Shown piece by piece: positions 2,238 through 64,000 of a stretch of 64,000 nucleotides of DNA. Each line of letters begins with the position of its first letter. Within the stretch, counting starts at the first letter, position 1. Source of the stretch: Bilabrum cf. latius. Lineage: Eukaryota. Made by a program: the position numbers and the translations under genes. The notes below the pieces were generated by a model that saw only the letters and a program-made list of their open reading frames with translations, did no database searches and was not told the DNA's origin. The stretch spans positions 992,001 to 1,056,000 of the forward strand of contig OZ237752.1 of NCBI GenBank assembly GCA_965178125.1, read 5' to 3'.

Positions 2238-4424
2238 ATGAGCTAGTCGTGGCGGAGCCTCGATTTTCCGGACGGGCTGCGGCCGTTTGAAGGGCAAAAG
2301 CAGGTGCGCGTAGCAATCGAGTATGCAATCAAATCGAGAACAAACGCACTGATAGAGAGCCCAGCAGGAAGCGGCAAAACCCTTGCACTACTCTCATCGG
2401 CAGTAGCATGGACGCTTGCTCCCGCGGGACCTGAAATGCTCGAGCCGGTGCAATCTGGCAAAGGCGAGCAGATCAAGCGTAAACTCGTTATTTTTGCGTC
2501 CAGAACGCACTCCTAGCTCCAGAACGCAACCAAAGAGCTTCGAAGACTTATAGTTCAGCACGAAGCTGGCTTAGGTCACGGCAAGGGGTAGGGTTCTCCA
2601 AATGCTGAGGCAGGGACTGAGGTTCTGCAAGCAGGCAGCATGGTGGTGGCCGCGCAACCCGAACACGAGAGGATCGTACTCGCAACTATGGCTTCAAGGA
2701 GGCAACTATGTGTGAATTCAACTATCAGAGAGGCTGCGACATCAAAAGCTGAATCTTTGGACGCGGCGTGCGCGCACGCTTGCGAGACGGGCAGCTGCTC
2801 GCACGCAGATCCCTCCAAAGTGGCCAGGCTGGCAGACCTCGCTGCGGGACCTCAAGCACCCACCCAATCTAGTCTGCTAGACGTGGAAGACTTGGCCCGA
2901 CTGGGAGCCTCGAGAAGTTCCTGCTCGTTCTTCGCGTCCCGCCGACTGGCCGATTCGTGCAGCGTGCTCATGTGCCCCTACTCGTACCTGCTGCATCCCG
3001 GAACCAGAGAGCAGTCCGAGCTTGGGAAGCTCATGCGCAGCAGAGAGGTAATCATTGTCCTGGACGAGGCCCACAACATCGAGGAGGCGGCATGTGAGGC
3101 CTCCAGCGCAAGGGCGAGCAGGCGCGATATCTCGGCAGCGATGGGCATGCTCGCGGCCTCGGCTGCGTCGGTCAGCCCAGCCGCAACAAAATCGAACGGG
3201 CTGCCGGTGAAGTCCAGCGATGCTGCGTACTCTGCGCTGCAGGGGATGCGGACCTTTCTGCAAAGGCTGTTTGGCTGGTGCGAGGCCGCGGTGAAAGCGG
3301 CGCATGGCTGTGGCTGTGGCAGTGGCACAGGCCCTGCAGTGCCCTCAATCGGGGACAAGCGCGGTCGGCAAGCAGGAGGCAGCGCTGCCCAGACTGCTCC
3401 ATCAGGAAGCAGTAGCCCTGCAGGACCCCGCATGACCCCGTTTCCCCTGGGGGTGCAGCCCAGTGCCCCCTCGAGCGACCTGGCCAGACTCGGGGTCACT
3501 GCCGCGCTGGGCGCCGGGCCAGCGCGGCAGGTCCTGCGGGAGGCGTGCGCCGCCGCTGGGATACGAAGCGTGACCCGCGGTCTGGCAGACCTCCAGACCG
3601 CCATAACACGTCTGGGTAGCAGACGACGCCGCGCATTATCCAGCGGAACTAAGCGAGGACCCCAGCAGGGGTTCGTGCGCCTGGGGCGGGCCGCCCTGGC
3701 CCTGCTCGAGTCCATGTCCATCGCTGAACAGGCCCTTGAAGCGTGTGGGGGCGATGGCAGCGCGGCCGGTGGTACAGCTGCCAGTGGTGCGGGCAACTCC
3801 ACCGGTGGATTCTCGCTCATCCTGTCGAGGACAGGCAGGGGCCGGCAGCAGCAGCAGCGGGGGAACAGCCAGGGGTGGCAGATCGAGCTGCGGTGCCTCA
3901 CCCCGGCCCCCGCCCTGGCCCAGCTCAGCAGCTTGGCTCGGTCCATTATCATGGCCAGCGGTACCCTGGGCGACATGCAGGGCCTGCAGGACAGGCTGGG
4001 GCTGCCCTTCCCAGTGCGGGCCAGCGCCCCGCACCCTGCCGACGTGGGCTACCAGCTGATGGCAATGGCGTTCAAGAGCGGGCCCACAGGTGGACCCCTG
4101 GAGCTGCGACACACCCACGACCAGGCCAGCAGGCAGCGATACATCGACGAGGTGGGTCGGTGCATCGCGCGGCTGTCCGACTGCACCCCGGCCCCTGGTG
4201 GCATCCTCGTTTTCTTCCCCAGCTTTGGCCTGCTGGAGGCGTGTAGGCGGCGGTGGGCCGCATCCGGGCAGGCCACTGCCCTTGAGGCTACGAGGCACCT
4301 GCGCTTCGAGCGATCGGGCATGGGCGAGGTGGCACACCGGGCGGAGGTGGGGGCCTTCTTGGCAACTGCCGCTGCCGCTAGTGGGGGATGGTGTGCCTCT
4401 TCCGGAGACAGGCAGCAGCAACAG

Positions 4425-4456
<32 letters not shown>

Positions 4457-7400
4457 ACAGCAGCAGCAGCAGCAGCAGTAGCTGATAGCGCCAGCAGGAG
4501 ACGGGAAAAGGGGGCCGAATGGCTCCACACCTACGGAGAGCAAGACAGCGTCACCCGCAAGAAGCTCACCCCCCGCTGTGGGGTCCCCCTCAAGGGTCCA
4601 ACCCCAGGAGAACCCCAGCGCGGGGTCATCCTCGAGCCCCTCCCCAACTGAGCCGCCGGCTACTGCCCGGGCCAGGCGGCTGCAGCGCCGCAGGAACCTC
4701 ATGAGAAAAAGGCAAGCAAGCGCTGCGCAGCTTCCCGGTGCAAGCAGTGGGAGGGCCTTGCCCGCTGCGGAGGCACCAGCAGCAACCAGTGCAGTAGTGG
4801 CAACAGCTGCTCTCTCTCTGGCGGGTCAAGAGGCCTCCAATGCCGTTGCCCAGGCAGTGTTCTCTGACAAGGACCGCCGCAGCGGATCCATGCTGTTCGC
4901 CGTGCACAGGGGCCGATCTAGCGAGGGATTCGATTTCAGGGACGACGCCGCCCGGCTCGTTGTGCTGGTGGGCGTGCCCTTCCTGGCTCTGGGAGACCCC
5001 GGGGTGGTGCTGAAGAAGAGGCATGATGCGGCTAGGAGGGCGAGGGCACAGCCTGTCTGGGCCAGGGGCGGGGCTGCATCGGCGGGACCAGGGGCAGGGG
5101 TTGCTGTTCCCTCGAGCAGTGGCCTCGCGGGGAAGCGTGCCGCTGGTGCCAGCGTCTCGAAAGCGGCCGGAACCCTGTCTGGCAAGACCGCCGCCAGCCC
5201 CACGCCTCCCGACTGGTACACGGCACAGGCCTTCTTGGCCCTGAACCAGGCAGCCGGGCGGTGCCTGCGCCACGCCAAGGACCACGGGGCCGTCGTGTTC
5301 CTGGACGCGCGGATGACCCAGCCCAGGTGGCAGTCGGGGCTCAGTGCATGGATGCGGCCTGCACTCCGGGGAGAATTGCCGTGGGACGCGGTGCAAGGGG
5401 AGATGCGCCGCTTCTTTGCGGGACAGGGGCGGGGTACTGGCATCGTGCCAGACGGGGGCAGCACGGATAGCAGCTTGGCAGCTGAGTCGGCCTTGCCTGG
5501 GCAAGCCGGTACGAGCGTCGCATTCTATGGCGATGGGGCCGGGAATGGGGCCGCATCCCCAGCTGATCAACAGGACCACTCAGTTCCCCTAGCCGTGCCG
5601 AGGCTTCCATCAGTGGCCTCTAGATCGGGAGGGGGGGCAGCTTTGGCCACAAGCGGCCGAGCGGTAATGGGCACAGTCGCGAAGACTCCGGCAAGACCGA
5701 CTGAGGAGCCCACGCGCACGCCATCTGCAGCTCGTGCCGACGGCAACAGCAGCAGCAGCAGCATGAGGATGAGGATGAGGATCGATCCCGACGATCCAGC
5801 TGGTGCACGTGGGGGTGCACTCGTCCCCGCAACAGGACCAAGGAGTATTTCCCATGTGATCGAGGGAACACACCAACTGTCTCACGCTGCAGCAGCATCT
5901 CGTAAGCACAGGCAGAAAGCAGCAGCTCGGGCCAGCGGTCCTTTCTCCTATGAAGCCGCAGGTCCTGCTCTCCCAAACGGCGGGCGGGGATGGGCCGCAG
6001 CTCTAGGCCGGTCTACCGCGATGCAGCGGGCCCCCAGCAGCACGCTCTCTCCCAAGCAATCAGCTGCTTCCACCCCTGCAGTGGTCCAGGCGGAGACACC
6101 CCCGACCGCGCCAGGGTCTGCAAACTCAGGCAGCCTCAGCACCGCCGAGGGCACTCCCTGGCGCGGTCTGCTTGGAGCGACTGGGACAAGACCTGGGGAC
6201 GATGCTGCCAAGGGCTCCACCCCCAGCACGCCAACTGCCCCTCACAGGCTGTGGTGCAAGAGGTGCGGCGCCCTTGCCTTTGACCTGGCGGGGCAGCTTA
6301 TCGGGCCAGAGGGACACTCACCGGAGCGCGTGCCCATCGACGGGGCAGTGCTGGGGCTGTACCCAGCCTCGCCTCCATCGCTATCAGCCCCGTGGCCCCG
6401 TGGTGGAGTTAAAGGTATTCGAGTCGGCTCGCTCAGCCGCGCAACCGCCATGGGGTCCAGCGGTCTAGCGATCGCGGGGGGCTCCTCCTCCTTATCGTCC
6501 TCGTCCTCGTCCTCGTCCTCTGCCTAGTCAGCCCCGGGGAGACAGGCCACCTCTGACGGGTTTCTCCTCGTGCACAGCCCCAGCACAATGGTGGGTGCGT
6601 GCCTGATCGTGTGCTTTAGGTGTCGCGCCGCAGGGCACTCTTGGGAGCACGCGGCAGTTGGCGTCAGGATCGAGATGGCGGGATCCAGGCACGCGGGGCT
6701 CATCGGGAGCGCGTGGGCACTTTCGGATCGCGTGCGGGGCGCTGGAGGCAGCCACAGGGGGTCCATTGGGGGGCAGGGAGCCCACGCAGACCGCCATCCG
6801 TGGGGCCTGCTGCCTGGTGCTGCCTCACCTGTGCACCCGTCACCGGCAGATGTGCACCTATCTTGGTCAGCAGCCCAGGGGGGAGGCAGAACCTTGACTA
6901 CCCTTGGCACTGGCACTGGCACTGGCACTGGCACTGGCACTGGCACTGGCACTGGCACTGGCACTGGCACTGGCACTGGCACTGGCACTGGCACTGGCAC
7001 TGGCACTGGCATAATACAGACTGCGAGCAAGGGCGGTGAGATTGCCAAAGGCAAGGGGAAGGGGAAGGGGAATCATACACTGGATGCATTGGATGCACTG
7101 GACTCGGACGACTCCTCCTTGGGGTCCGAACATGAAGATGAAGACATGCCGACAGCCAGTCCGCACTGCAGCCCTGACTCGCCCAGGAGCCCTGGGTCTG
7201 TTGCGGGAGTGACACAAGGGGGATTCAGGCCAGGCATAGCGAAGATGAGGAGCGGAGGGCTGCAGCCGTCGAGCTCGGCCCTGGGCGGAGCAGGAGCACC
7301 TCGAGGTGTACTGCAAGGAGCACCTCGAGGTGTATTGCAAGGAGCACCTCGAGGTGTACTGCAAGGAGCACCTCAAGGCGTATTGCAAGGAGCACCTCGA

Positions 7401-7934
7401 GGTGTACTGCAAGGCGCGTGGGGCGCGGGTCAGCAAGCCGGGCAGCAGGGCATGCAGCGGGGCGTGCAGCCGTCCTATGGGTCTGTGGAGAGTCTTCGCG
7501 CAGAGGAGATCGATCTGAGCGAAGGTGCAGCTGCAGCATTACTGCAGGCTGCTGAGGAGCTGGGCAGCAAGCAGCAGCACGCCGGTGTCTCGGCTGGGGG
7601 CGTGGCCGGTGGCGGCCTAGCAGACGCGCGCAGGAGACTCGACTGGGGAGCTCATTGGAGAGCGATTGCACCTACAGCACGGGTGCCTTCCCCACAGGAT
7701 GGAGCTGGGCTGGGTGTCGGTGTCAGTGCCAGTGCCAGTGGTGACATCCACGGCGAGGGCAGCAGCAACCCGCGCGGCGCCGATGGGGCCCAGGGCGCGG
7801 TGCAGCTGGCGATGCAGGCGTCGCTCGAACCGCAAAATCGCGGGCAGCTTGCGCTGCTTCGAAATCGGGTGGGGAAACCTCCGCGCTCCCCTGTCAGCGC
7901 TTCTTCTGTGTCAAGCGTGGAGTCGTGTAGTTGA
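2238..7934 (+). CDS. BRIP1: FANCJ/BRIP1-like (XPD/Rad3 family) Fe-S DEAH DNA helicase, ~1898 aa with TAG=Gln
   Basis: ATG 2238; single frame with TAG at 2244, 2514, 2589, 4479 and 6525; ends TGA 7932-7934. Motifs: FPDGLRPFEGQ, ESPAGSGKT, ASRTHS[TAG]L, Fe-S cysteines (LCVN..AC..SC..CSFF), CPYSYLL, LDEAHNIE, SGTL, FFPSF, SEGFDFRDDAAR, ALNQAAGRCLRH. RTEL1 is not excluded. Confidence 0.8.
4413..4481 (+). repeat. CAG/CAA polyglutamine run (22 codons) followed by an in-frame TAG
   Basis: Directly visible; the frame continues after the TAG. Confidence 0.95.
6906..7010 (+). repeat. (GGCACT)17 coding microsatellite (Gly-Thr run)
   Basis: Directly visible. Confidence 0.95.
7293..7412 (+). repeat. 24-bp coding repeat x5 (GAPRGVLQ)
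   Basis: GGAGCACCTCGAGGTGTACTGCAA units. Confidence 0.9.
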
Positions 7935-8320: not shown

Positions 8321-8453
8321 CTATGCTGCTTCTGCAAATAGGTCCATAGCACAAGTGCTCACCATGTCTCCTATACTTGATTGTGGAGGATCTTTGCGTG
8401 CACTCGAGAAAATATCAGTATTAACACTTTATAATACCACCGAAGATGCGAGA

Positions 8454-9191
8454 ATGGACTTCACTCCAACATATCAAAGGTCAATGGCAGCCGCGGAAGC
8501 GCCTAAGGTAGTTGTGACGGAACGAAAGACAATGGGCTCCGATGAGCCGGTGTCCGCCTCCTCCTTTGGGCTCCGTGATGATGCCCTGACGCACGATTCA
8601 TTGCTAGCATGCCGCGATGATGACCGGAAGCGATTCTACGACGAGCTCGACGCATTTGAGAACTTTCCCAAGGAAGGCATCCGATTCTTTGATATGTTTA
8701 GCCTGATGAGAAGCCCATCCACGTGCCAGCTTCTTCTAGGCTGCCTGACCCGAGGCATTAGACTGGCGTTCCCGGCGGCGACTGCGATCGCGGGGCTTGA
8801 TTCGAGAGGCTTCCTGTTCGGGCCGTCGGCTGCTGCATCGCTGGGCATGCGTTTCATTCCTGTTCGCAAGGCAGGCAAGCTTCCGGGCCGATGCCTCACA
8901 GCAGGATACTCAACCGAGTACAGCAATGCGAGCGGGGAGGTGCAGGTGCTCGCCGTGCGAGCGCCGGGCAGGGACAAGGCCGGGGCTGCGTCCGACGGCG
9001 AAGACGTGCCCAAGGAGAAGATAGTGGTGGTAGACGACCTCCTCGCCACGGGAGGCACCCTCGCTGCCTCCGTGGCGCTGCTGGAGGGGGCGGGCGCAGA
9101 GGTGCTCGGCTGCGTGGTGGCGATCGAGCTGCCCGAGCTCGATGGGGCGGCAAAGGTTGGCAAGCCCGTAAAGACGCTTTTGCGGTGTTGA
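8454..9191 (+). CDS. APRT: Adenine phosphoribosyltransferase
   Basis: NFPKEGIRFFD, AGLDSRGFLFG, RKAGKLPG and PRPP-binding VVVDDLLATGGT; ends TGA. Start is 8454 or 8484. Confidence 0.92.
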   Translation: MDFTPTYQRSMAAAEAPKVVVTERKTMGSDEPVSASSFGLRDDALTHDSLLACRDDDRKRFYDELDAFENFPKEGIRFFDMFSLMRSPSTCQLLLGCLTRGIRLAFPAATAIAGLDSRGFLFGPSAAASLGMRFIPVRKAGKLPGRCLTAGYSTEYSNASGEVQVLAVRAPGRDKAGAASDGEDVPKEKIVVVDDLLATGGTLAASVALLEGAGAEVLGCVVAIELPELDGAAKVGKPVKTLLRC

Positions 9192-9270
9192 TTTGCCGAT
9201 AGAGTATATACATTGCCACGAGATGAGCCCGGCCAACCGTTCATCAATCAATGAGTTGGCAACCCTCCGG

Positions 9271-12116: not shown

Positions 12117-14256
12117 TCACGAGGTGCGGGCAAAGTAGGTCACATTGGCCCCCAGCTGCACCTCCAGCATCCCGTCTGTGCCCGTGCACGCCTCCCGTCC
12201 CACCGGGGTGCCCATCCAGTCCAGCGGCTGCCAGCAACTGCCGCCGCTTGCGCCCCTCCCCCCTTCCTGAGCGCCCCTCCCCCCAGCATGTACGCCCCTC
12301 CCCCCTTCCTGAGCACCCCTCCCCCCTTCCTGAGCGCCCCTCCCCCCTTCCTGAGCGCCCCTCCCCCCAGCATGTACGCCCCTCTCCTCTGGCAGCAGCA
12401 AGGCCTGCTCCTTCCACTGCTGCCAGGAGGGCACGGCGGAAGCCAGCGGGTCGAACTTTGCGGGTAGCCCGTCCATCTCTTTGGGGAAGAAGCACTGGTA
12501 CGGGCTGGCACCAGGGTCGGGCTCGTAGCAGCAGCCCAGCACCTTCTCGCATGTCTCTTTTGACGCCGCGCCTGCGGGCATGTTGCCGCAATTGCGGCGG
12601 TCCTCCTTGGCCACTGCACTGCACTGCGATGCGTCGCCCGTGACCCAGCCCATCAGCAGCCCCACCTTGGGGTCATCGACTCCTCCCACCAGCGCCTGGT
12701 CACCACCAGCACCAGCACCAGCAGCAGTACCAGCATCACCACTGCGCTGTGCCGTTGATGCGCCTGCCGAGTCAGGCTCGAACTTCATGACCCATGCGTT
12801 GGTCCCTGCCTCCGTCCAGGTACCCGCCGACTGCACCCCGGACAGCCGCCCCTTGAGCTGCACCCCCGGGGCCCGAGCCAGCTTCGAGTACGCCTGCACT
12901 CCATAGAAGCTCGGCTTTGCCTCAAAGGTACCGCTGCCCAGGCTCTGCCCCCCTGAGCCGGGCACCACGTCGTGCCTGACCTTGCCGTACATCTGCTCGC
13001 GCATGGTCACGTTGTCTCCGCCGTCCCTGAACTCGTAGTCGATTGACACAGGCACGCCGTACCACTCGTCGATCGCGTACCGCCGGGGCACGTACGCTGC
13101 CTGCTGCCACTCGGTTGCCAGCTGGCCCCGGGGGAAGCACGTCCCGTGCCCTGGGCCCTCCGTGCCGCAGGTGGTCCACCCCTGCTCCGATGTGACGAGT
13201 GGGATGGGGGCCTTGCCCTCGGGGGTGTGCTTCTGCACCACTGCGGCGAACTCGTCGTAGGACGCGGGCATGTTCTCTGGAGGGGATACCCTGTACGGGT
13301 GGAAGGACGCCCCGTCGAAGAGCGCGGGATCGAACCCGCCCGCGGCCCCGAAGTCCTGCATGAACTCGATCGGCATGCCCGCCGCGCAGGGTCCCACGAT
13401 CAGCTGGTCGGGGAATGCCGCCTTGAGTGCCCTGGCGGTGGAGAGGGCGAGGTGGGCGTACTGGGTGACGTTCGGGGCGGGCTGGCCCGTGGAGTTGCGC
13501 CAGAACGCGATGTTGGGCTCGCTGCGGCGGGCAGAGGAGAAAAGCGTGACGGGGCGATTGAGAATGAATGGAGGGAAGCAGGCATCTGCGCACTGGGCTA
13601 GATCCATGACACTGGCAGGGCTGCTTGGCTCGAGTAAATCCACTCGATACGAGGACACGGCTCGACTTGCTCACTTCCAGATCTCGGCGACGAAACGGCT
13701 ACCAGGGTATCGAGCACGGTATCGGCCGACTCCCGTCACTGCCCATTTGACAAACGCGTCCACTTGCCACTGTTCTGTGGGCGAGCACGACGGCCAGGTG
13801 CTGCGAGGCAGATCCGGGCAGTACGCTCGGTTCCACAAACCGAGGATGAACAGCACCGAGACGTTTCGCTGGGAATATAATTCCTCCATAACACCATCTA
13901 AATAGGTCCAGTTGTAGACTCCTTGCTCCGGTTCCGTTTTATCCCACTGGAGCGACGTCCTGACAACATTGGCGTAGCTCGCAATCATGTCGAGGCCTTC
14001 CGCCGGAAAAGGATCGTTTGAACTCCAGTCGCCCTGCAAGGTTGCATCGGGAGGATATCAACAACTTTGTGCCTTGGTGGTACCTACCTCTCCAGGATGC
14101 TCCACCGCAATGGGATAGTCTCTATTCGGCGTTCTGCGATCTTACCCAGTGAATATTCACACCGCGTGCCCCTCGGTCCCCACCAGGCCAGTCACTAGCA
14201 ACTGCAAGACATATAAGACAGGTGATTCCAATCGTGAGAGCTCCATCATTGCGCAT
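12117..14256 (-). CDS. Secreted clan GH-A glycoside hydrolase (GH5/GH39-like) with a C-terminal trefoil (P-type) domain; exons 14256-14146, 14033-13675, 13521-12117
   Basis: Signal peptide MRNDGALTIGITCLICLAVA and GVNIHW. Splicing the GT-AG introns 14145-14034 and 13674-13522 restores acid/base motif EIWNEPN. Also SFHPY, nucleophile motif VTSEQGW, and trefoil-like C..RRNCG..C...GCCY..CFFP. Ends TGA. Confidence 0.8.
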
Positions 14257-40211: not shown

Positions 40212-40370
40212 TTTGCTTCTTCCACATCATTGGCCCCACTCTGCTTTTGAGTATGCCAGTGTGGGGTGCCCATGTCCGATCCACCCGTGGTCCTAGGCTA
40301 GACTGGAGGGCTACGATGTGTTCCGGGTTGCTGGAGCATTCTCTATGCAGCCACGAATCTAGTGCCCCCG

Positions 40371-47723: not shown

Positions 47724-49033
47724 ATGCAGACCGTCTTCGATGCTCCGCTCCTCCATTTCGGAGTAGTGCTCTGCCTAGCCAGCTGCACAACGGCACAATT
47801 TGTCCGTGATAGCCAATTATACCAGCAAGAACTATCTGAGTCTACTGGTGAGGTGCTCGGGATGAAATAATTAAGCAATGCGAGCCGACTAGAAGCTCAA
47901 GGTGGCCACGTAATTCGACATATCGTCTTCAAACCAAAACCTTTGGTATTGACTTCGCAGGCTAGCTTCTAGCTCAGCTGTAGAACCACCCCGACTTGGA
48001 AGATATTTATTTTCCCGGAAAGTATGACATCCCGACGCAGTTCTACAGGTTCAGGCCGCCAGTGGATTACACGCAGAACGTGATATTCGATCCGTGCCGG
48101 GACCAGGAGTATGACTGCTGCAAGGACACGTACGGCACGCCAGAGTTTCGCCGGATCCTGCCGGATGGCACGGATCTGCGACTTCGTGCTGGCGGAGAGC
48201 AGCTCCCCCTGGAGAGCAGTCGGCTGCCCACGGACAGCCTCGAGATCGACGAGCTGTGCACGGGGGAGCGCCAGCCCTTCGACTACTGCGTCCGCTCGCG
48301 GGTTGCGCGCAAGCCCTACCCGCTCACGCCGCGCTGCTGGAACAACAACGCCACAATCGTGGCAGACCGCAGCTGCAGGTCCCCCATGGACGGCAGCTCC
48401 CTGCCCCTCTGCCTGGAGCTGGCCGTCACCCAGACGGCCTACATCGTGGAGTGCGGGGGGACCTTCCGGAGGTCCCAGTCCTGCGGAACCTTCCTTGAGG
48501 TTCACCGGCCGGGGTCGGAGGAGGTGCTTGCGCAGGCTCGGTTGCGGGGGCAGTACACGAGCGGGTACCGCATGGCCGTGATGACGACGACGCACGGCGG
48601 CCGCAGCAACCGCACCCTGTGCGAGGGAAGGCACGAGCTGTGGTGGGTGCACCGCACTCGGTACGAGTACATCGTGGAGAAGGTCATGCCCTTTGAGATC
48701 GTGTCTCCCCTGTGCGACTGGGATGCGGTCAACGACAGGTTCCTAGAGTACGCCACTGTGCCCGCAGTGCCCCTCACGGGCCTGGACCCCTACGCACCGT
48801 CTAGGTTTGTCGAGGCGCACACGAGGACGTTTGGTACCCCGGGGTATCCGGGCAAGGGCATGGGTCCAGAGCTGCGGCTGTTCAACCGCAGCGCGTTCCC
48901 GCAGTCGGCTCGCTTCCAGTACGGCAGCCCATATGAATACGACTTCACGCCCGCCACGGAGGACCTCACTGTCAAGGAGGGCGAGCTGTGGGAGTCGCAT
49001 CCTGAGTCCAGGGCCAGCCAGGGAGGGGCGTGA
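47724..49033 (+). CDS. Secreted Cys-rich hypothetical protein; intron 47848-47960
   Basis: Signal-like exon 1; GTGAG..TTGAC..CAG intron; exon 2 with TAG 47963 and 47981; strong GC3 bias; ends TGA. Confidence 0.65.
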
Positions 49034-50757: not shown

Positions 50758-53241
50758 TCACCGCCTGCCACCATCGCTGTCGCTCGGCAGCTTCGGGGGC
50801 GGCCGGGGCCCCCTGCCTCCCGCGGTGACGATGGAGGCTGCAGCGACGGCGCACAGCAGCGACACCACGGTGGCGATGTTGTAGGGCATGGCCGTGTCGG
50901 GGGCCGGGGGCTCGACCTGCAGAGGAGGCAGGTGCAGCTGGCCGTGCCACCGGGGTGCTGGTGCGGCCCCTCGGTTTGCATGCGCCTCGCCCCACGACAC
51001 CCTAACTGGAGCCAGGTCGACCCCCCGGTGCAGGTCGGCGGGCAGCCACTCGGAGGCACGGACGGGGAGTCGCACCGGCAGGCGGATGGCTGCGGAGCAC
51101 GTAACCCGCTTGCTTGCGCCACGCGCACCATCAAGTCCCATGCCCGGATTCAAGTCCAGGTCCAGGAGCAGCCAGCCAGATGACACCCCACCATCCTCCC
51201 GCCGAGGCAGCTGCCAGTCTATTGCCACCACCCTGCCGCAAGGGGAAGCAGCCGACGTGTTGCGCCCCCCCTCTGCCCCACCACCCCCCGCCCCCAGCAG
51301 TCGCTCGGCCTCGAATCGCACCTGCAGGTCGCTCGCTAGAAGCTCGAGCATCGGTCCCAGCTGCCACTCGAGCTGCACCCGCACGGGCTTCTCCCCTGCC
51401 CCATAACTCGCTGTCGCCTGCACCGCGTCGACCAGGCCCCCTGTAGGACGGATCCCTTCCGCCCATCTGTGCGCCACCACCTGTTGATTCTCTCTCTCCC
51501 AGCCGCGAGCCACAGATGGTGCTCTTGGCACAGCCTCTGCTTGCTCCTGCCCTGCCCCTGCCCCTGCAGAGCACAGCTCGTACCGCAGGTCCAACGCCCC
51601 ACCTGGCACAGCCCTGTCCTCCTACACGTGTCCACGATCTGGCTGCATCTCTAGAGAAGAAGACGCATCGCATGGTCTCGGCCATACCTCGTCCGCAGCT
51701 CCGTGCAGCCCGCTTGCAAACACGCGAGCATCCCAGGGCACAGCTGCGAACGCACTCGAGCCTCTCACCGCGCACCCGAGCGGTCTCGAGAGGCCGTGCA
51801 TGGCTGCAGTCCGACGAGCCGGCTTCTGCAGTGCTGCCTGCACTGCACTGCAGCTCACACTCCTCCATTTGCCGCCGCCCAAACCACGTCCGGTCCCAGG
51901 CACGTGACCTGCATCGGTCTGGCCCCCGTCGCCCCCTCGCAGCCCCTCAGGCAGCTGCTCCCAGCCCGCGACCCACACCCACACCGCGCCCGCCCACTCG
52001 TCACCCCGAGGGTCCAGAGCGCCCAGGCAGCTCCGGGCATTTCGCGCCCCACCCCCGCTAGGAGTCAGTCCCATCAGCTCCCCCAGACCGACACCCCCCG
52101 GTCTCTCCAGCGCCAGCGCGCCCTCTCTGCCCCCGAGCTCCTGCCCCCACAGGAGCGGCGGCCTGCCAGCACCAGCGCGCGAGGTCCCGTCCACTCCCCT
52201 GGGCACGAGGCCAGCGGGCCCGTCACGCTCGGGGGGATCAGTCCACAGGGAATGCGGGGAGTCGCCAGACTGGAGGTCACCATCTTGATCGTCCCCTGTG
52301 CTTGCCCCACCCTGAACCTGCACCTGCCTGTCCCCCACCGGGGCCTGCACCACGATCCTGCGACCCCTCTTGCCCGGCATACCCGGCGAGACCCATGCCA
52401 GTGAAGAGTCCACCCACACCCAGCGAGTGGCATTGCGAGGCAGTCCACCGGTGGACCCGCGCTCGCCTCCAAGCCGCGCCCCTATGGAAGCTCCTGCCCA
52501 CGGGGAGGCGAGCACAGCGGTGTCAAGTACGGCCTGCAAGGGGCCCGCCCGCATTCCGCATGGTTGTAGCCGGGCCCAGCGGCCCAGCTGTGCAGCACCC
52601 AGCCGAGCCTGGGGCAAGAAACCCCGGGCAATCCAGTCCCAGCCCGAGCCGGATGTTTCGCGAGTGGCTCGCCACGAAGGCCTCAGCAGCATGGACTGCG
52701 AGTGGCGGTCTGCTAGGAGCCCGACCGTGGACCCTAGCGCGGCATCGAGGCGCCCTGCTACATGTGCAAAGTCCGCCGCGATCTCGACACTGGGCAGCTC
52801 AGGCCGCTCGTTTCGCTACCATGTCTTGCCGCCCTTGTGCACAGTTTCGAGCGATGCTCCGGCTGCAGCAGAACATGCGGTGCGTGGTAGTGATTGACTA
52901 CACTATGAACTCCATGCAAATTGGCCCAGCAGCTTTGCTGAAGATCCTCTCGCCATAGCGTGCTCGAGAGAGAGGAGCGAACCAAACGAGAGATGGTCCG
53001 CGATAGCAGATGGAAGCAAGCCCGAATCCGGGCTGCACACACGCCCTCCACGTGACTCTCTACATGAAATACCGGATCCAGCTGACGACAAGAACTCAAG
53101 TACAACTTGCTAGTTCGAATCGTTCGAAGCAGAGGGCTCGATAAAATGTCTAGGAGTTAATACCAAATCTTCTTGGATGTGAACTGCCGCAAGAATGCGG
53201 TAAATACAAGACAATATTATCAAATATACACATGCGCGCAT
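50758..53241 (-). CDS. PIGT: GPI transamidase subunit PIG-T/Gpi16, ~827 aa
   Basis: Signal peptide, [47 protein letters not shown] plus TM helix. One frame with TAG at 53110, 52903, 52816 and 51622; ends TGA. Confidence 0.8.
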
Positions 53242-53339: not shown

Positions 53340-55246
53340 ATGGCAAGAATTGCAGCAGAATGTCCGTATTTGCTTTTAATCTCAATATTTATAAGAATTA
53401 TAGCTGTTATCGCTGGGGAATATATTGATCTAGTCAGTCCCGCACGGAAATACACAGATGTTGACTACGTCGTGTTCACAGATGCGGCAAGACATCTCCA
53501 GGCAGGTGGTTCTGCGTTTGACCGGGCCACGTATCGATATACACCATTAATGTGAGAACGGACTGTCCCGCTGTTGTTGCATTATTCATCCGGTGCCAGC
53601 GATCTTTGCAAACCCCAATCCTCCAGTAGATCTACTTGCCCCGCAGAGCCTGGATGTGTACGCCGAATGTTTGGCTGCATCCTTCGTTTGGTAAATTATT
53701 GTTTGCAATAGCTGACGTTCTGGTTGGAGTGGTGCTTTACGAGCTTATCCGTAAAAGCGGTGGCACTCGGCATCGAGCAGGGTGGTCTGCTGGCGTTTAC
53801 TTGCTCAATCCATTGACAATCAATGTCAGCACTAGGGGAAACTCTGACGCTATAGTTGCGTTACTAGTTCTCGCAGTGCTGTTGGTACTGCAGTTCGGCA
53901 AACAGGCAGTGCACAGCGCAAAGTAGGCTGCAGGCCAGTGGAGTGGCACGATGCATGCTCTGCTAGGTGGGGTCGTGTTAGGGCTAGCTGTCCACCTCAG
54001 AATATACCCAATCATATACGGGCTGCCCGCCGCCATTGATGTCGTAGGGTGGCACGTTATTCCGTTGCACGCGACAGCGCCGAGCTCGGAGGGCGATGCT
54101 CCTCTGATCAAGATAGCGAGCGGAAGCAGCGACGGCGATGGCAGCACTGATAGTGACAGCGATGCCGGCCCATCAATACGATCGAGGCCAAGGGCAATCA
54201 GCAGGGCGCGACAGCCTGGTTGCACGCATGCCACTAGACGGACGAAGGCTGTTGCTACCGTGCCACCGCTGTCGTCAGTGTGGGGCGATGTGCAGATGGA
54301 CCCAGCGGGAGCTGCGAATGCGGCCGTGTTGGCACTGACTATGCGGTGCTGGAGATGGGCCTCTTGCGAATCCCCAACTCGTAGCCACGCTCAAGCGCCC
54401 GCCCTCGATGGAGACCCCCCGTCCCTCGGCGTCGTCGACAGCCTCAGCCCAAGGCTCAGGCTCAGGGACTATTCCAAGAGAGCACCCCTGCGGCTGCTTG
54501 GGCTGGCCCTTGGTGCTTGCCTAGGCAGTCCGCGAGCCTGGTCACTGGTGCTGGGCCTCTTGTGTTCCACAGCTGCCGTTACATGGGGCGCCATGTCCAT
54601 GGATGGGCATCGTGGGCTGGATGCAGCTTATCTGTACCACCTCCGTCGTCAGGACAACAGGCACAACTTCTCGGCGTACTTTTACCCCCTGTACGCGCTG
54701 GCGGGTGCAGGGCACGAAAGTGCGCGGGCGTCTCTAGCGTCGCTTGCGTTTGGTCCCCAGGCCTTGCTGCTGCTGCTGGCGGGGTGCGCTCGTCCAGGAG
54801 ACCCCGGTGCATCGATGCTGCTGCAGACCATAGTGTTCGTGGGGTGGAACAAGGTGTTTACTGCGTAGTACTTTGTGTGGGTGCTGGCGCTGCTGCCGCT
54901 GGAACTGGCACAGTCTAGCTTGGGGTGGGCCTGGCCGTGGGAGCAGGCACGGCCCAGTAATCGGCGCGGAGGTGCTGGGGCATAGGACGGGGAGTGGTCC
55001 TTGTGGAGGTGGGGGGTGGTTGGGGCAGCGTGGGCCGGCTGCGTGGGGCTCTGGCTCTCGCAGGCTGGGCTACTGGAAGACGCTGGGGTGCCAACGTTCA
55101 GGCGGGTGTGGGGGGCAGGGCTGGTGCTCCTGCTGGCGCATGCCTGCATCGCTGCCCTTGTGGCCATAGCTGGGCCCGCACGTGGGAACGGGGGCAGACA
55201 AGAGGCTGTGAACGCCCTTAGTAAGTCGATAGATGTCTTGGAGTAA
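53340..55246 (+). CDS. PIGM: GPI mannosyltransferase I PIG-M/Gpi14; intron 53552-53646
   Basis: [70 protein letters not shown][TAG]YFVW. TAGs at 53924, 54866 and 54983; ends TAA. Confidence 0.93.
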
Positions 55247-55479: not shown

Positions 55480-58400
55480 TCACTCCCCTCCGAAGAGGGC
55501 CCCCCGCACTACCTCGTACAGCGCCTGGGAGCCAGATCGCTCGATGGGAGCCCTCCTCGGGTCAGTAAACTCGGTGCTACCCTCTCCGGCTCCCCCCCAT
55601 TCTACCTCGCTTTCACCCACCGGCAAAAGCGGCTCCTGAAGCTGCGAGTACTGCACGCTAGACGACACCGAGTGCCGACTGCCTGTGCTGCCTCGACCCG
55701 CGCTGCCGCTGCCCGCCGTGGCCCGCCCACTTGCACTTGCATGCTCCGTGCCCCAGCTGCCGGAGCGCTGGCCCACATGCCTCCCGCTGGCGCCATCTAC
55801 TGCTGTCTACTGCGATGCCCCCTTCTCCACGCCTTCTCCTCCTTCGTGGTGCCTTGCCAGCATGCCCTCCATGGAGCCCCGCCCAAGCGACAGCCTACCC
55901 CTGGAGCTCTTTCTCGCCCTTACGGACTGGCCCTCACCAGTATCAGCATCAGCACCAGCACCAGCACCAGCTTCGATGGGGTCTTCCCTGTCCATGCTGT
56001 CCAGCCTCTGCCTGTCATCGTCAGCCCATGCCTATTCGACGACCGGCTTCGCCCGCTGTCCTCCCCCCCCTCCTCTTCCTTTTCGTTCCGCCCCTTTTCC
56101 GTCCTCCTCTCTAATCATCCTGACGCGCCCCTCCTGCATGTCCATCGAGCACCCAGTCAGCCGAGACATGGTGCGCGCCCGCTCCAGACTCATGGACCCC
56201 ACAATCACGATGCCAACCACCACCACCCCGAGACCGACCACGAGCGCACTCAGCAGTGCCACGGAAAGCACCACCACAACGGCACGGAGGTCGTGGGGAG
56301 TGGGCGGCGGGTCCACCACAGCGGCGGGCTCTGCAAGCAGGATGGTGGTCAGAGCGGCGGAGTGCAAAGAGCCCGAGTGCGGCAGGGGACACAGCTCAAG
56401 CCCTGTCTGCGGGTCTGTTGCCGAGTCGAAGGCCGCCGGCATCAGTTGCACCGTCATGTTGGACGCAATCTGGTCTCCTCCCTAACCAGCGGAACCGCTG
56501 CCAGCGCACAGGGCAGAGGCAGTGTCCCTGGCGATCTGACCCTGCAGCGCGCCCAGGTGAGAGGCGTTGGCTCCTCGGAGCGCTGCCCACTGCACACGGA
56601 GCCAGAGAGGCCCGCTGTCACCCAGGCTAGCGTTGAAGGCAGGATCGTTCCTGGCCAGAGAGGCCACCAGCGGCGGGGGCGCGAAGGACCCCGACAGCAG
56701 GGCGTCGGCCACACGCACCCGCCAGGTCTCCGCACGGGGGTTCCCGCGCACTGCACCACCATGCGATGCATCAAGTGGGCGGTTGCCTCGGAGCAGATCC
56801 ACCCGTGGCTGTCCCTGCCCCTACTCTAGCCCCAGCCCCGGCCCCGGCCCCAGTCCCAGCCCCAGGGGCTCCTTGCTCCTCCCCTCCACGTCGTCTCGCA
56901 CCATCCACCCCCACGAGTCTGCCAGGGCCGCCCACTCCCCCCTCCTCTGCATTGGCTCAGTGGACCCTCGCGGGGGAACAAGCAAAGGCATCAGCCCGGC
57001 TGAGGTCACACGCAAGTCCAGCGCAACGGTCAGTTCGTACTTGCTTGCTTGCTACGAGGAGCCACCGTCCCCCCCGGCATCCCCGCCCGTGGTCGCGCCA
57101 GCAGTCCCACCGGCCCCTTGCAGCCCAGCGGGATGAAGCCGGGCCACGCCGTCATAGAATAGTAGGTCGGGCAGCTGCGGGGTAGGGGAGAGGGAGGGGG
57201 AGGGGGCTGGGGCACCCGCTCGCCTGTCGCTCCCGCCTCGCTGCCCACTCTCTTCATGATCATGATCGGGAGACTGGGCATGCAGCAGCTGCATCAGCGC
57301 ATCCCACGCCCCTTTAGCCGCATCGTTGAGCTCCTGCACCTCATCGCCGCCCCCCCACACGGGCCCGGCGGGCAGCTGGCCCCTCTTCCATCGGCTGCTC
57401 CCTCTGCGCCCCTGTGCCCCAGATACACCCACGAATCGCCCAAGCAGCAGCAGCGCGGTGGTTTCATCTGCCCACGCCGCCGCCAGACCCGCGTCTGCCC
57501 TCAGCCACCCCCTCGGCTCCGAGCACTTGAGTGCCGCAGGTACATCGTCCCAGCCGCCCTCTCGGATGAGCTACAGCCCGCAGCCAAGCGCGCACAGCTC
57601 CATGCGCCTCCGGAGGGGGGACAGGGCGGCTCGCTCGGGCCGCTGCAGGGAGGCGACCGGTTCTGGCGGAACTGGGAATGGATGCGGGCACTAGGGATCC
57701 GGACTATTATGCAACTGACGAGCGATAGCAGCCAGGGATCGGCCTTGCGGTGCCGGTAGCAGCGTGGCGTTGACCGTGCCTGGCCCGAGCCCTGGGGTGG
57801 CAGGCAGCGTGGCTTCCCACGGATGCCGGGCTAAAATAGTCCACGGCATCGATCTGATCGTGCTACTGTCAACACCAAGGTATGAATTCATGGCAGGGAC
57901 TGTTCGAAAGTCTCTGGTCCAGCGCAAAGCCCTGCGCGCCGCCGGGAAACACTCATTGTTCAGCGTGGAGAACGCTTGCTTCAGCCAATTTGCCCCACTT
58001 TCGCACCTTGGTGACTCGTTCTACAGTCTACAGCCTGCAAATGCTGCATATGCTGCATACAGGTGGACGAGACATGTACGACCTAGCTTGGGTGGCGCTG
58101 CGAGTGGGCTCAGCGACTAAGCATCCCCGCTTTTCAACGACGAAGCTGGTGGCCAGCTGATAAACGAGCCAGCCAAGGGCTGGTCTGATCCCTACGGCAG
58201 CTTGCAGTATATTACAGCTGGAATTCTGCCAGAGCTGACTTGTGAGTCCGCGACGAGCTAGATAATTTTCAGGGCCGCCGCCCCGGGCTCCATCTCGTTT
58301 ATCTTGTCTCCCGCAACGACCAAAGCCGTCGCGGCATCCAACAGGGCTTCGACATTGTACCCAATGCATACAGATGTCGAATTTGTTGGGCATTCACAGC

Positions 58401-58566
58401 CTACTCTGCTGTTAATCTGCAGGAATCCGGTCAAAGAGGCGGACAAGCTGTCGCTGGCTAGGTGCTTCAATTCGTCTGCCTAACACGTCGTACTCCCACA
58501 GTGACCCGCATTGACTATAGTTAATAGTAAATAATAAACAATAGTTCGCGTAAGATGGTACTGCAT
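55480..58566 (-). CDS. Type I membrane protein of unknown function, ~1028 aa with TAG=Gln
   Basis: Signal peptide MQYHLTRTIVYYLLLTIVNAG; single frame with 12 TAGs and no TAA/TGA until 55480-55482; one long TM segment; cytosolic tail containing YSQLQEPLL. Confidence 0.65.
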
Positions 58567-58739
58567 CGCTGGGATGAGATACATCTGGCCGGCGGAAGAG
58601 AACTCGGCTCCGAGTGCCATCGGCCCGGGGGTCGGTGAGTGCCAGTGGGCACTTGGTTGGGTGGAGGTTTGCCGTGCCACTTCCGAGTGGATAATGCACA
58701 ATACCCATCCCCAGATCGATCGGCAAAGCACCAATCCAA

Positions 58740-61700
58740 TTAGTTGGAGCCCTCCTCACTCCCTTCCACGGCCGAGTCCAGGTCCCTCCCGATGCCAGCC
58801 ACGTACTTGGACTAAATGGCCTCGAAGTCGGCCCGCAGCAGGGCTCGGAAATCAGACAGCTCCTCTTCGAGGTCTTGTTCATCCTCCGCAGCGCCCTCTG
58901 AATCAAAATTAGCACCATCCCCATCCCCAGTACCAGTAGCAGCTCCGGCCACTGCATTTTGCGTGGTCGAGCCTGCTGCTGGTGACACTGCATCCACTCG
59001 CAATGCTGCCTGGCCTTGGACCCCATCACCCTCCTCATCCCTGCTGCCATCACCCGCACTGCCGGCCTGCCCCCCTGCCTCTGCCTCCGCCTCTGGGCCC
59101 TCGTCCTCAACCCCTCGCCCATCCATACCAGCTCCATCGGTGCGTTTGGTGGCAACTATCAGTGCCCCTTGCCCCTCACTCTCCTCCACTCCTTCGTCCT
59201 CCTCCTCCTCCTTCAAGCCACTATCCTTCTACCGCTCCGCCTGCAGCATGCGGACCAGCCGAGAGTTCTCCTCGAGCAGGCTAGAGAAATGACGCCAGGG
59301 AACACCGTGGGAACCCTCTTCCGGACCGAGTCCAGAGCTGGGCGTGTTCCTGCTCCCAAGTACAGCTCCGCCAGCAGCAGGCACATTCGGCTCCCCGGGC
59401 CCACCGCCTCCGCCACCGCCACTAATTCGGTGATCCGAACCAGACTGGTCAGGCGGCGCGGCGCTGCCACCCGCATCACCCGTCGGCTGGGGCCTTCCGG
59501 TTGGCAGGCGCAAGGCGGCCTCCCCGCTGCTTGTGGGCCGTTGTGGCTCTGGATCCCACAGGCCGTCTGCATCAGTTCCGTTGGGTGTGTTCGCTGCGGC
59601 CGCCAAGCTGTTGCTCGAGGACACGGACTGGCCCGGTTGGGACTGCACCTGCACTTGGCTCCCGCCCGCACCTGCACCCGCTCCGTGTGACGCGTGTGTT
59701 CCCTGGGCGAGAGCGAGAGCCGACTGCTCCGTGGCTCGGTCCCCATCGACGGGCCCTGCCCCTGGCGCCTCGTGCCCCTGCGCGCCCATGGCAGCGGCGA
59801 GGGCCTCCGCTGCGCCGCCTGTGATCATCAGCCCGCCCGTGGTGCCTGCCTCTGGCTGGGCTCCTGGCAGCGAGGGAACACGCACGAGGCCGCTCCGGGG
59901 CGAGGCAGGCAGCAGGGCAGACAGGGGCGGCATGGCGCGGCGGGAGGGCGGCGCTGGGTGCAGACCGATGGCGGCGCGCGGCTTGGGTGCTGTATTGTCT
60001 GCCTCCAGGCCTTCTGTTTGGGACTAGGGCCATGCTGCAGGCGGCTCGACTTCCAGGGGTGGCGGGGGGGATGGACCCTGCTTGGCTTCCTTGCCAGTGC
60101 CTGTGCCTGTGCCAGTGCCAGTGCCTGTGCCTGTGCCAGTGCCAGTGCCAGTGCCTGTGCCTGTGCCAGTGCTTGTGCCTGTGCCTGTGCCTGTGCCTGT
60201 CGCACTCGTGCCGCTCCCCTCCGGGCTGGGCTGGTGGCTGGCTGGCGGCGAGCTGAATGGCGACGCGAGCACCTGGCCGGCGGTCCCTGCTGGGCTCGAG
60301 TAGGCCCTGTCACTGCCACTGGTTCTCGGCGCCTCTGTCTCGCTCGTGGGGGCTGGCGGCGCGGCGACCACTAGATCGGAATCGACGTTTGCATCGGGTG
60401 CCGATGCTGCACTCTGCTGCTTGTGCTATCCCGGGGTGGTCTCTTGCGCTGACTCATGCGAGGAGCCATGCACGGGCGAGGAGGATGAGGAGGAGTCCTG
60501 CTCTGATCGTACCGGACCAGCAGCGCCTTCTTGCTTCTACTCTGGCTCTCTGGAGCTCGCCTCGATGCCAATGTGTTCTTCTTCGGCTCGCGCGTCCTCC
60601 CCAGCGGTGTCTTCTCCTGCCGCATCCAGGAAGAGCTGCTGCAGCTCAGCACCGGCATCGTCCTCCGATGCTTGCTGCGTGTCGCGCTCATTATCGCCAT
60701 GATCTGCAGCACCACTGTGCGCTTTGCCATTTTGCATCGAATGAGAGGACAGGCCGACTGATTCGTCCTCTCCACCTCTGGCCGGCTGTTCACCCGATTG
60801 GTCTCCTCTAGTCGCCTCCTCAACCGGCACCTGAGTGCCTTCCTACTCTGTCCTGGCGAGCCGCGCGCAAGCGCTGCTGGGATGCCCTCCGCTGTGCGCA
60901 AGCAGCAAGCGCACCACCCTGACGGATAGCACCGGAGACACCACACCGGGGACATCCTGACCGCTCCCACCTCTCTAGCCTTGTCCCCCACGCCCACCGT
61001 CTTCCAAACTCTCGCCCTCTGGCGTGTAGGCAGACTCAGGCAGAGAGAGTGTCCTGGCCACCGGCAGCCCCCAGCCACCCTATGCCCTGCCGGAAAGCCC
61101 GCCAGCAGAGGGAGAGGACAACGACTCGTACAGCTCCCTGATCTGCTCTGCGAGCTCCTCGGCTGCCCAGAGGGGGCCCCTCCACAGCACGGCCCCGCCC
61201 GCCTCCAGGACCTCCTCCGCTGCCCTGCTCACCGCCTGTGCCCCGCCGGCATCAGGAGCCCCCGTCCAGCCGCACACCAGGGCTGCGTCCTTCTCTAGAG
61301 CGTGCGCCGCCCCGAGGCTCTACTCCGCCATCTGAGCCACCACCCTGGCGACCTGCCTACCTCTCCTTTTCTAAGGGGATGCAACCGGTGGCCCGATTCG
61401 GTTGGTGCTGCCACTGCCAGGGTCTGAATCTTCGCCAACCCGAGGGCCCGTGAAACCTGAGTGTGCTCCCGGCACTAGCCGCGCCGTCACGGCCACCTCG
61501 AGCTTGCCGGGGTTGAGGGCCCGAGCCAGCAAGGAGCCCCCGCTTGCGCTGGCGGCGCGGAGGGCCTGACCACCCCCCCCTACCTTTCTCCCATGCTGCT
61601 GCTTGCCTGCTGCCACTCCTTCTAGACCCACCTCCCAGAGCACGTCCTGGGCCAGGGCGGCACATACCCTACCTGCATCCGCGCACACGCGCACCCCCTT

Positions 61701-64000
61701 GAGGAGAGCATCCTCCAGGGAGGCCGCCCCCTTGGAGACGCTCGCCAGGATGGCAGCCCGACCGATGGCCTGCTCCTGCTCCTGCTCCTCCTGCTGCTCT
61801 TGCTCAGAGTCAGAGGCTTCCTGACGCCCCCGTGCGACGAGCTGATTGGAATTTGTCCGCTCCACCGCTCTTGGGCCGGTATTGCTGGACACTGGCTCAT
61901 CGGCGGCCGCCAGCGCCGCCAGCGCCCTCGCCCTCCTGGCTGGGGAGAGGAGATCCATGGCGGTGAGACCGGCGGAGGACGAGGGCGAGGACGGGGGGTC
62001 GCGGGCGGAGCGAGCACCCGAGGCCTCCCCAGGGCCCTGCTTTGGACCCCGTTGGTCAAGCGGCATCGGAAGGATCATAGCGAGCTCGCTGGCCAGCGGG
62101 GAGGCGCGGCGGACACGTCTCTAGCCGGACTGCCTGGGACTGCGGGGCCTGGCCCCGGACTCGTGCAAATGACCCCCCGCAGTGCCCAGGCCCGTGCCCA
62201 CGGTAGAGGCACTGCCCCCGCTCATGAGAGCAGCGGCCGCTGCGGCCTGCCGAGCTGCGGGGGTGGGCGCGCGGGGCGAAGGGGGTCGACTGCTGCCTCG
62301 TGGTTGTGGTTCGGGGGCGTCCAGGAGCGCGCCCTAGGATCGCCCTGCCTGATCACCGAGAGCGGGCCCCGCTGGCCTGAGCGCACGCCTCGCATCTCTC
62401 CGGAAGACGTACACGTGCTGCGCACCCCCCAGCGCGATCGAGTCTCCATCCTCCAGCACAACGTCCTCCTTCGCCACGCGCCCGTTCACGCTCACCCAGG
62501 CATCCGCGGCGGGTCTCAAGACGATCGTCCCGCGCTGCACGCGCCTGGCCACTTCGGGAGACAGCTGCGCCGAACCGGCACCACTGGAGGATCCCACGAG
62601 CGGCCCAGGCGCGTGCAGCACGAGGCAGTGTTCCGGCAGCATCCCCGGCCCGCCCAGTCGCACGTCCTGGGCAGCATTCGCCCGCTGGCCCCCCGCCCCT
62701 ATCCTGGTGACTCCGAGCCTGAGAGGGAACATGAGCGCCGCAGTGAGCAAGGGGTCCTCGCTGGCGTTGACGAGGCAGGGCAGGCCCAGGGAGCGGGAGG
62801 CGCGGGCCACTGCCACCGAGGGGGAGTCGCTCTAGGGGGGCAGGCCGAGCGGCGACATCAGGGCGGCCGGTCGGGCTGCTCTCTGGGGAGATGGCAGGGA
62901 GGCCAGTCCAGGCGGCGGGATGGCGTTCTTTCTTTCCGTCTGCGTGCTCTGCATCGGTGCCTCGATCGATGCGTTCCCTCTTGGCGACTGTCCTGCGCCC
63001 GGCATTCCATCTGCCTGCAGGTGCTCTGTGGCCCATCGTCCACCCGCCACCGCGCCCTCCTCCACCTCCGCCCCGTCCGACTGCAGCTGCAGCCCAAGGG
63101 ACGCCAGGGCCTCCCGCCTGCGCCTCCACAGCACCGCCGTCCTGCGCCTCTTGTCCGCCCAGCTCTCCGAGTGACGAGTGAGGGCCTCCTGGTACGCGCA
63201 CAGCCGCTGGAGGAGGGTCCGCAGCGGCAGTTTCTCGCTGGGCGTCCCCTCGTCCCGGCCCCCCGGGATCATGCGGTCGATGCCCCGCCGCCTGGCCTCC
63301 TCCTCCTCCTCCTGGGCTGCCCGCCGCCACATGGGATGCTCAGGGTCCCAGAGCCCCCCGTCCCAGCCGAACTCGCCGCCCAGAGACACGAGAGCCTCTT
63401 GCGCCTGCCGACTCAGCACACCATCGCCATCGCCCTCGCCCTCGTCGCCCTGTTCCTAATCGCCATCGCCGCCACCAGGACTACTGCCTGCAGCATGGGC
63501 CGATTTCGTCCGGCTGTCCTCCCGGCTGTCCTCCCGCTGACCCGTAAGACCCGGGGATACCCGCGGCCCACGGGACGGACTCGCCGGCGCGGAGGCAGAC
63601 TGCGGCTGGGGCAGGGCATCGGCTGGACGAGCGGCGGTTGGAGCACCCCCACCGCCAGCCACGCTGTGTCGGCGAGGCCGCAGGGGAAGACCGGGCGGGG
63701 CCCCTTCCTACAAGCCGCTGCCCTCGTCTGCCTCCGTCTGGCTTGCGGCCCCGGACGTGCTCGAGGGTTGCCTCGACCTGCGTCCCCGGCCCCTCCTCTT
63801 CCTCTCCTGCTGCGCCCGCTGGAGCAGTCGCTTGGCCACGCGCGGAGACCGCAGCCGCACAAGCACTTGCAGCCGGTGCACCTCTGCCTGCAGATCCGCG
63901 GCCAGTCGCCTGGGCTGGTGCTGATTTACAGCCACCCTGGTGGTGACGTGCCTCGCCGAGGAGGCGTACCTCAGCGTGCTCAGGGTGGCGGCGAAGTCCC
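58740..64000 (-). CDS. Kinesin-3 family motor (KIF1/KIF13/KIF16-like), 3' part
   Basis: End of motor TLSTLRYASSAR, neck VAVNQ..RLAADLQAEVHRL, FHA domain PCLVNASEDPLL...TRIG..QDVRLGG....EHC...VSVNG...LEDGDSIALG. About 15 in-frame TAGs; ends TAA 58740-58742. Confidence 0.85.
60093..60199 (-). repeat. Gly-Thr hexamer run (GGCACW)n in the kinesin tail
   Basis: Directly visible. Confidence 0.9.

Follow-up and report, generated by a model that had tools for sequence, protein, structure and literature searches.

Does UAG still terminate translation in the genome from which contig OZ237752.1 derives? UAA and UAG nearly always change their meaning together, and a 64,000-nucleotide stretch of this contig (assembly GCA_965178125.1, positions 992,001 to 1,056,000; referred to below as the window and numbered from its first letter) had been predicted to read UAG alone as glutamine (Gln). 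Each lineage that splits the two codons tests how the release factor eRF1 can lose one purine-ending stop codon while retaining its partner, and whether one tRNA-Gln(CUA) suffices; with a case in a GC-rich genome that relies mainly on TGA rather than TAA, the range of conditions known for such a split would become broader. The analysis of the window led us to the reading that UAG encodes Gln while UAA and UGA remain stops, in nuclear DNA from a eukaryote with a high GC content and few introns, and we consider this reading highly probable. The UAG-only Gln code itself is already known, and the window constitutes a further case, possibly of independent origin.

Stop codons and reading frames of the window

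The GC content of the window was 60-69% when followed in 4-kb steps and about 64% overall. Under the standard code, the longest open reading frame (ORF) comprised 828 amino acids (aa). Treating TAG as a sense codon raised the four longest ORFs to 1918, 1765, 1763, and 1752 aa. Treating TAA in the same way left the maximum at 828 aa and extended the top ORFs by a few tens of codons only. With TGA as a sense codon, the maximum was also 828 aa, yet the number of ORFs of at least 500 aa rose from 13 to 30, which is likewise the number obtained with TAG. Codons were then counted in 17 gene models comprising 16,397 codons. These contained 78 in-frame TAG codons, no TAA, and no TGA; in their two alternative frames, TAA occurred 26 and 39 times, TAG 169 and 105 times, and TGA 227 and 210 times. 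In-frame TAG was present in 14 of the 17 models, the helicase, ferroportin, and PIG-M domains described below included. For one of the long ORFs (15282..20546, + strand; 1754 aa, nine TAG, TGA stop, no known family), the length free of TAA and TGA far exceeded chance at the off-frame stop density.

The original prediction had counted about 80 places by hand at which consecutive same-frame ORFs were split by TAG and none at which they were split by TAA. This pattern was reproduced, although the hand count may have included two long ORFs that we dropped before the codon count, as a gene with better support is encoded opposite each of them. The first (12580-14289, + strand, seven TAG) is probably an antisense artifact opposite a Trefoil-domain ORF (12117-13607, - strand) with a GC content at third codon positions (GC3) of 0.81, and the second (47897-49390, - strand, 497 aa, two TAG) is probably a spurious ORF opposite the spliced gene at 47712-49033 on the + strand. 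Further ORFs, e.g., those at 34031-35707, 8910-10085, and 10873-11904, were excluded as unsupported. The models terminated in TGA (13 models) or TAA (4 models, with stops at 40209, 42930, 55244, and 58740); the absence of gene-terminal TAG from these models, which read TAG through by design, and all four TAA coordinates agreed with what had been predicted.

Gln was encoded by 502 CAG and 125 CAA codons in the 17 models, so that TAG makes up about 11% of Gln codons. These numbers bear on the possibility that UAA and UAG both encode Gln and that UAA is merely rare because of the high GC content. CAA is the less used of the two standard Gln codons, and a sense TAA would therefore be scarce. However, about 19 in-frame TAA codons would be expected beside the 78 TAG codons if the CAA:CAG ratio applied, and in-frame TAA, which, if frequent, had been named beforehand as one of the signs that would speak against the predicted code, was found nowhere in the counted codons. 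Reading TAA as sense also joined no ORFs, and four models end in this codon. A family of three paralogues provided a further comparison: paralogue a (31401..33932, - strand, one TAG) ends in TGA, while paralogue b (37587..40211, + strand, two TAG) and paralogue c (40272..42932, + strand, two TAG) end in TAA. Their C termini align within 4 residues across the TGA and TAA stops, and this coincidence supports TAA as a true stop. A code in which both codons encode Gln thus appears highly improbable.

With respect to TAG itself, the alignment of the three paralogues offered no clean column, since their TAG codons fall in diverged N-terminal parts; the TAG of paralogue a is a one-codon insertion directly after a CAG in comparison with paralogues b and c. 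The proteins are about 850 aa long and have no Pfam match. Their N-terminal thirds are diverged, and residues of about 310-675 are almost identical in all three, which, as far as can be judged from the sequences, suggests recent duplication or gene conversion.

The amino acid probably encoded by TAG

The domains of three genes were intact only when TAG was read through. A helicase of the FANCJ/RTEL1/XPD kind (2238..7934, + strand; 1898 aa, five TAG, TGA stop) matched the Pfam families DEAD_2 (residues 86-297) and Helicase_C_2 (residues 874-1041). Its TAG codons at aa 93, 118, and 748 follow the Walker A region and precede the C-terminal domain, and the whole helicase therefore needs readthrough. 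The codon at aa 93 (2514..2516, + strand) falls on the Gln position of the RTHSQ motif, lies in a segment covered by the DEAD_2 match, and aligns to the Q of 'rthkQi' in FANCJ. The codon at position 748 (4479..4481, + strand) follows 22 CAG/CAA codons (726-747) and precedes a CTG. The second gene encodes PIG-M (53342..55246, + strand; three TAG, TAA stop; Pfam Mannosyl_trans). Its TAG at aa 405 (54866..54868, + strand) falls in a column where 60 of 61 homologues carry Q and none carries D or E, and the counterpart in the solved GPI mannosyltransferase 1 is also Q. The Pfam match extends to aa 499 and thus beyond the last TAG at aa 444. The third gene, encoding ferroportin (43117..45324, + strand, with the frame open from 42706; five TAG in the model, TGA stop), matched Pfam FPN1 with an E value of 2.5e-87 over profile positions 4-429 of 430, and PDB ferroportins matched as well. 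At aa 540 of this protein, a TAG (44323..44325, + strand) falls in a column with Q in 68 of 145 sequences, H in 38, and Y in 15.

In total, four conserved columns carried a TAG of the window, three of them Gln columns and one an Asp column. When the likelihood of each residue was calculated over three window columns, Q was best, with H at -3.9, D at -4.9, and E at -7.0 natural-log (ln) units relative to it. Addition of a TAG column from a related metagenome contig (L001, described below) brought the lead of Q over the next-best residue to 7.2 ln units with these four columns, and Leu and Ser were far less likely than Gln by the same measure. The predicted enrichment of TAG columns for Gln was thereby borne out by three of the four conserved columns and by exchanges of TAG with CAA and CAG between the window and L001.

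Full-length products after readthrough had been claimed for a larger set of genes. The claim holds for the helicase, ferroportin, and PIG-M. For the supposed PIG-T (50758..53241, - strand; 827 aa, four TAG, TGA stop), the Pfam Gpi16 match was weak and below the cutoff (E value of 0.0015, 17.5 bits versus 27), and no PDB match was obtained, so that this ORF is only possibly PIG-T/Gpi16. A gene described as kinesin-3 runs off the window (58740..63998, - strand; 15 TAG, TAA stop). Of a motor-like domain, no more than the final residues fall within the window, and the rest of this tail has no Pfam match; the gene can be called kinesin-like, with kinesin-3 as a putative family.

TAG codons in relatives and transcripts

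An exhaustive HMMER search with the ferroportin retrieved short pieces that are 81-98% identical to the window protein. This ferroportin is represented in public protein collections solely by fragments of 71-179 aa, which are remnants of a gene cut by a standard-code gene caller in related strains. Six ORF pieces, including one from another gene, had five distinct ends, four located before a TAG of the window and one before a CAG. One of the pieces (P0217, 91% identical) ends at TAG 121 of the ORF at 55480..58620 on the - strand. Because callers that use the standard code cut the genes of this organism at every TAG, its gene content will be misread until the correct table is applied. A more distant relative was found on the metagenome contig L001 (JGI), the ferroportin of which shares 67% identity with the window protein across 418 aligned residues. 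Along the whole contig, its frame stays open and contains three TAG codons, no TAA, and no TGA. In conserved blocks, a CAA of the window (Q246) corresponds to a TAG of L001, while the window TAG at aa 540 corresponds to a CAG. As the TAG pattern is found both in strains with 81-98% identity and in L001 with about 67%, it is a trait of a clade rather than a quirk of a single assembly. A further relative, about 90% identical, was present in sequencing run X9; it differs from the window at 1647 places, and among the 40 of these that were listed, none fell on a TAG codon.

L001 was the one locus retrieved by a second, alignment-based scan of metagenomes, the first pass having given no match. Scans of genome contig and viral contig sets gave no match either, and in two of three word-based protein searches, low-complexity words dominated, so that each gave a single match. 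Fragments aside, homologues of PIG-M and ferroportin were at most about 40% identical, and the nearest relatives of the ferroportin in the set compared were metagenome proteins with at most 34% identity. In a ferroportin tree, the window protein and three metagenome proteins formed a group of their own (support 100/99), separate from those of choanoflagellates and animals. Among 27 ferroportin matches that were looked up, the named clusters, all within the 26 best-scoring matches, were opisthokonts in 12 of 12 cases; this may reflect which organisms have had their ferroportin sequenced.

To follow the TAG codons into sequencing reads, four of 15 listed public runs (X5, X6, X8, and X9) were aligned to 20 kb holding 40 of these codons. 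In run X6, the depth was even at about 2, and a single contig spans 52276-58354 without gaps and passes through an intron; this run thus behaves as DNA. In X5, the depth varied between 3.9 and 332 per bin (with the bin at 61376-62042 left out), and X8 was likewise very uneven. A GT..AG joint at 47846>47960, corresponding to a 113-nt intron, was observed in both X5 and X8, and a second one at 53551>53647 (intron 53552-53646) was observed in X5. Because of these joints and the uneven depth, X5 and X8 were read as RNA. The second joint connects two exons of PIG-M (at least 53342 to 53551 and then 53647-55246) and restores a continuous N terminus with the conserved start of the family. The first joint links an exon resembling a signal peptide to the ORF of a Cys-rich protein (47712..49033, + strand; intron 47847-47959, TAG codons at 47963 and 47981, TGA stop), and the ORF is open across it. 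The genome had been predicted to be intron-poor, which agrees with these data; it is not intron-free.

Five TAG codons were present unchanged on spliced contigs, including both of those of the Cys-rich gene. Pieces without any difference to the window covered 26 of the 40 TAG codons in X5, 26 in X6, and 11 in X8. All 12 TAG codons of the ORF at 55480..58620 (- strand) lay within such pieces of X5, and the ankyrin-repeat gene at 45519..46772 (- strand) was covered to a high extent by pieces of X5 and X8 without differences. The codons are therefore neither spliced nor edited out, nor do they represent errors of one assembly, and removal from transcripts, which the original prediction had named as a test, was not observed. 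The idea that the TAG codons are untranslated, because of introns, editing, pseudogenes, or assembly errors, is further contradicted by the agreement of three independent runs, by the restriction of the effect to one of the three stop codons, and by the same pattern on the separate contig L001. We regard it as practically negligible.

Several side observations were made on these reads. The Cys-rich gene gave by far the deepest contigs (about 320 in X5 and 49 in X8) and belongs to no Pfam family. CT..AC joints (GT..AG on the minus strand) were seen at 46969-47486 and 50115-50233, with X8 and X5 contributing one each. Two introns probably account for them, one in the 5' portion of the ankyrin-repeat gene and one in the 3' portion of that at 50758-53241. 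The bin at 61376-62042 showed a depth 20-400 times that of its neighbors in all four runs (1877, 239, 1019, and 638) and many loose ends at 61769-61804; a low-complexity repeat to which unrelated contigs align is the probable cause. Part of the stretch was present in 13 public runs with several organism labels, and runs under different labels carried it nearly unchanged; two runs with a low share were labelled as algae metagenome and protist metagenome. This organism may often accompany or contaminate other cultures. As several public runs already contain it, it seems accessible.

Several points weigh against the assignment of UAG to Gln and were considered together. The amino acid call rests on few sites, because only four TAG codons lie in conserved, alignable columns, and the alignment at helicase aa 93 consists of one short segment and one solved structure, worth 1.5 bits by itself. 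At aa 235 of the ferroportin, a TAG (43408..43410, + strand) falls in the column that is D in 134 of 145 sequences and Q in none. It sits in a GxxxD[RK]xGR-like motif, and we take the column to be the Asp of MFS motif A; if TAG is Gln, the ferroportin has lost an Asp that is nearly invariant in the family. Piece P0156 stops just before this codon, and the TAG in the Asp column is thus kept in a relative. In an acidic insert of the ferroportin, which is variable and poorly alignable, both TAG pairings with L001 are GAG. None of the runs found was recorded as an RNA run, and the RNA nature of X5, a run labelled 'RNA? (probably DNA)', is a reading from joints and depth. By analogy with known codes, a tRNA-Gln with the anticodon CUA would read UAG and not UAA, and an eRF1 with lost or weakened recognition of UAG would keep that of UAA and UGA; no tRNA gene was found in the window, whether introns were allowed or not, and the eRF1 gene does not lie within it. 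Finally, the gene models were built with TAG read through, and genuine termination of a gene at this codon would escape notice.

The Asp column and the two GAG pairings favor a sense codon for another residue, i.e., Glu, Asp, or mixed decoding. Against this stand the PIG-M column at aa 405 without D or E, the distance of D and E behind Q in the likelihood over three sites (which grows with four), the reciprocal CAA and CAG exchanges with L001 in conserved blocks, and the TAG that closes the poly-Gln run of the helicase. We therefore consider another residue quite improbable.

The way in which the models were built leads to a different concern, namely, that UAG has a dual meaning and encodes Gln inside genes but stops translation at the ends of some of them in a context-dependent manner. 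Four of the 17 models indeed carry a TAG within their last 50 codons, in the ORF at 26157-31361 only 4 codons before the TGA, and the Pfam match of the ferroportin ends at aa 760 with later TAG codons at aa 803 and 825. However, no model needs TAG as a stop, the number of TAG codons near the ends is about what uniform use as a sense codon predicts (calculated from the TAG density), and the Pfam match of PIG-M passes its last TAG. A context-dependent dual meaning is unlikely, and UAG as a Gln codon, with UAA and UGA as stops, is the reading that we retain.

Other genes of the window and known codes

The remaining genes of the window differ in their use of TAG. No TAG was present in a WD40-repeat gene truncated by the window start (2..2089, + strand; TGA stop; Pfam WD40), in a phosphoribosyltransferase gene (8364..9191, + strand; TGA stop; Pfam Pribosyltran, E value of 2.5e-13), and in the Trefoil-domain gene on the - strand mentioned above (12117..13607; TGA stop; Pfam Trefoil, E value of 3.6e-07). 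The ankyrin-repeat gene carries two TAG codons near its N terminus and ends in TGA (Pfam Ank). Two long ORFs on the + strand, at 21799..25635 (1278 aa) and 26157..31361 (1734 aa), contain eight TAG codons each and end in TGA, and the ORF of no known family at 55480..58620 (1046 aa) also ends in TGA. An ORF at 21151-21783 (+ strand) has an EF-hand-like end, and the ORF at 21799-25635 has an EF-hand-like start; the two may form one gene, via an intron or a frame change. Within the 1754-aa ORF, a tandem array at 17400-19200 (+ strand) consists of dozens of near-identical GLASGLASTGG / GQDTGG units, and another frame over this array (ORF 17485-19194) contains 48 TAG codons. GT-type microsatellites are read as Gly-Thr runs in the helicase, in the kinesin-like gene, and in the ferroportin of L001. 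Rfam models, rRNA included, gave no match in the window at gathering scores.

The code of the window was compared with known systems on the basis of the available portions of the cited papers. As a table, it is the one that NCBI files as the Blepharisma nuclear code (code 15). Under the name 'genetic code 15', TAG as glutamine has been used for crAss-like phages (PMC9523058). The table is formally the same, but these are phages of gut bacteria, while the window belongs to a eukaryotic nuclear genome with spliceosomal introns. UAG has been uncoupled from UAA in other eukaryotes as well, as in the window but with another amino acid: it encodes Leu in the rhizarian exLh and Ser in Scotinosphaera (PMC5304391, PMC11687900).

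A change from stop to Gln outside the ciliates is described for Amoeboaphelidium protococcarum, an aphelid parasite of green algae in which UAR encodes Gln (PMC5304391, PMC6299283). Like this parasite, which occurs in algal cultures, a relative of the window organism is found with algae, in a run labelled 'algae metagenome'. In A. protococcarum, however, both TAA and TAG are reported to encode Gln, whereas TAA is a stop in the window. The genomes of two Amoeboaphelidium species have GC contents of 40.5% and 39.9% (Table 1 in PMC10608142), and the genus, as represented by these two sequenced species, was rejected on the basis of a GC content of about 40% against 60-69% and of TAA as a stop. The nucleariid Nuclearia thermophila, with 44% GC, was a mismatch to the window in composition.

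The same assignment as that in the window, UAG but not UAA as Gln, is reported for Protocruzia tuzeti and two phyllopharyngean ciliate lineages and is described as having several independent origins (PMC11687900). These organisms are ciliates, in contrast to which the introns of the window are ordinary GT..AG ones, its genes are long and lie on a 64-kb contig, its GC content is high, and its ferroportin groups with metagenome proteins. The description of the window as not ciliate-like is reasonable in view of the introns and the GC content of 60-69%; a phylogenetic placement does not stand behind it. In the portions of the literature available to us, Iotanema, Protocruzia tuzeti, and phyllopharyngean ciliates were the sole organisms with a described UAG-only Gln code. 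No report fitting a GC-rich nonciliate was found in a search that covered few subscription journals, and a published description may therefore exist.

A parallel outside the ciliates is Iotanema spirale (Fornicata), in which UAG alone encodes Gln, UAA and UGA are stops with UAA as the primary one, and eRF1 carries a T32G change in the GTS motif (PMC5304391). I. spirale shares with the window the change of UAG to Gln with UAA kept as a terminator. It differs in being an anaerobic metamonad, known in this respect from transcriptome data and with UAA as its main stop, whereas the models of the window end in TGA in 13 of 17 cases at a GC content of 60-69%. We tentatively propose, as a possibility that we hold nearly as likely true as false, that a GC-rich, undescribed eukaryote lineage gained the UAG-only Gln code clade-wide and independently of the fornicates and the ciliates. 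If true, this origin would add a nonciliate case of the uncoupling of UAG from UAA to those known from Iotanema and the ciliates.

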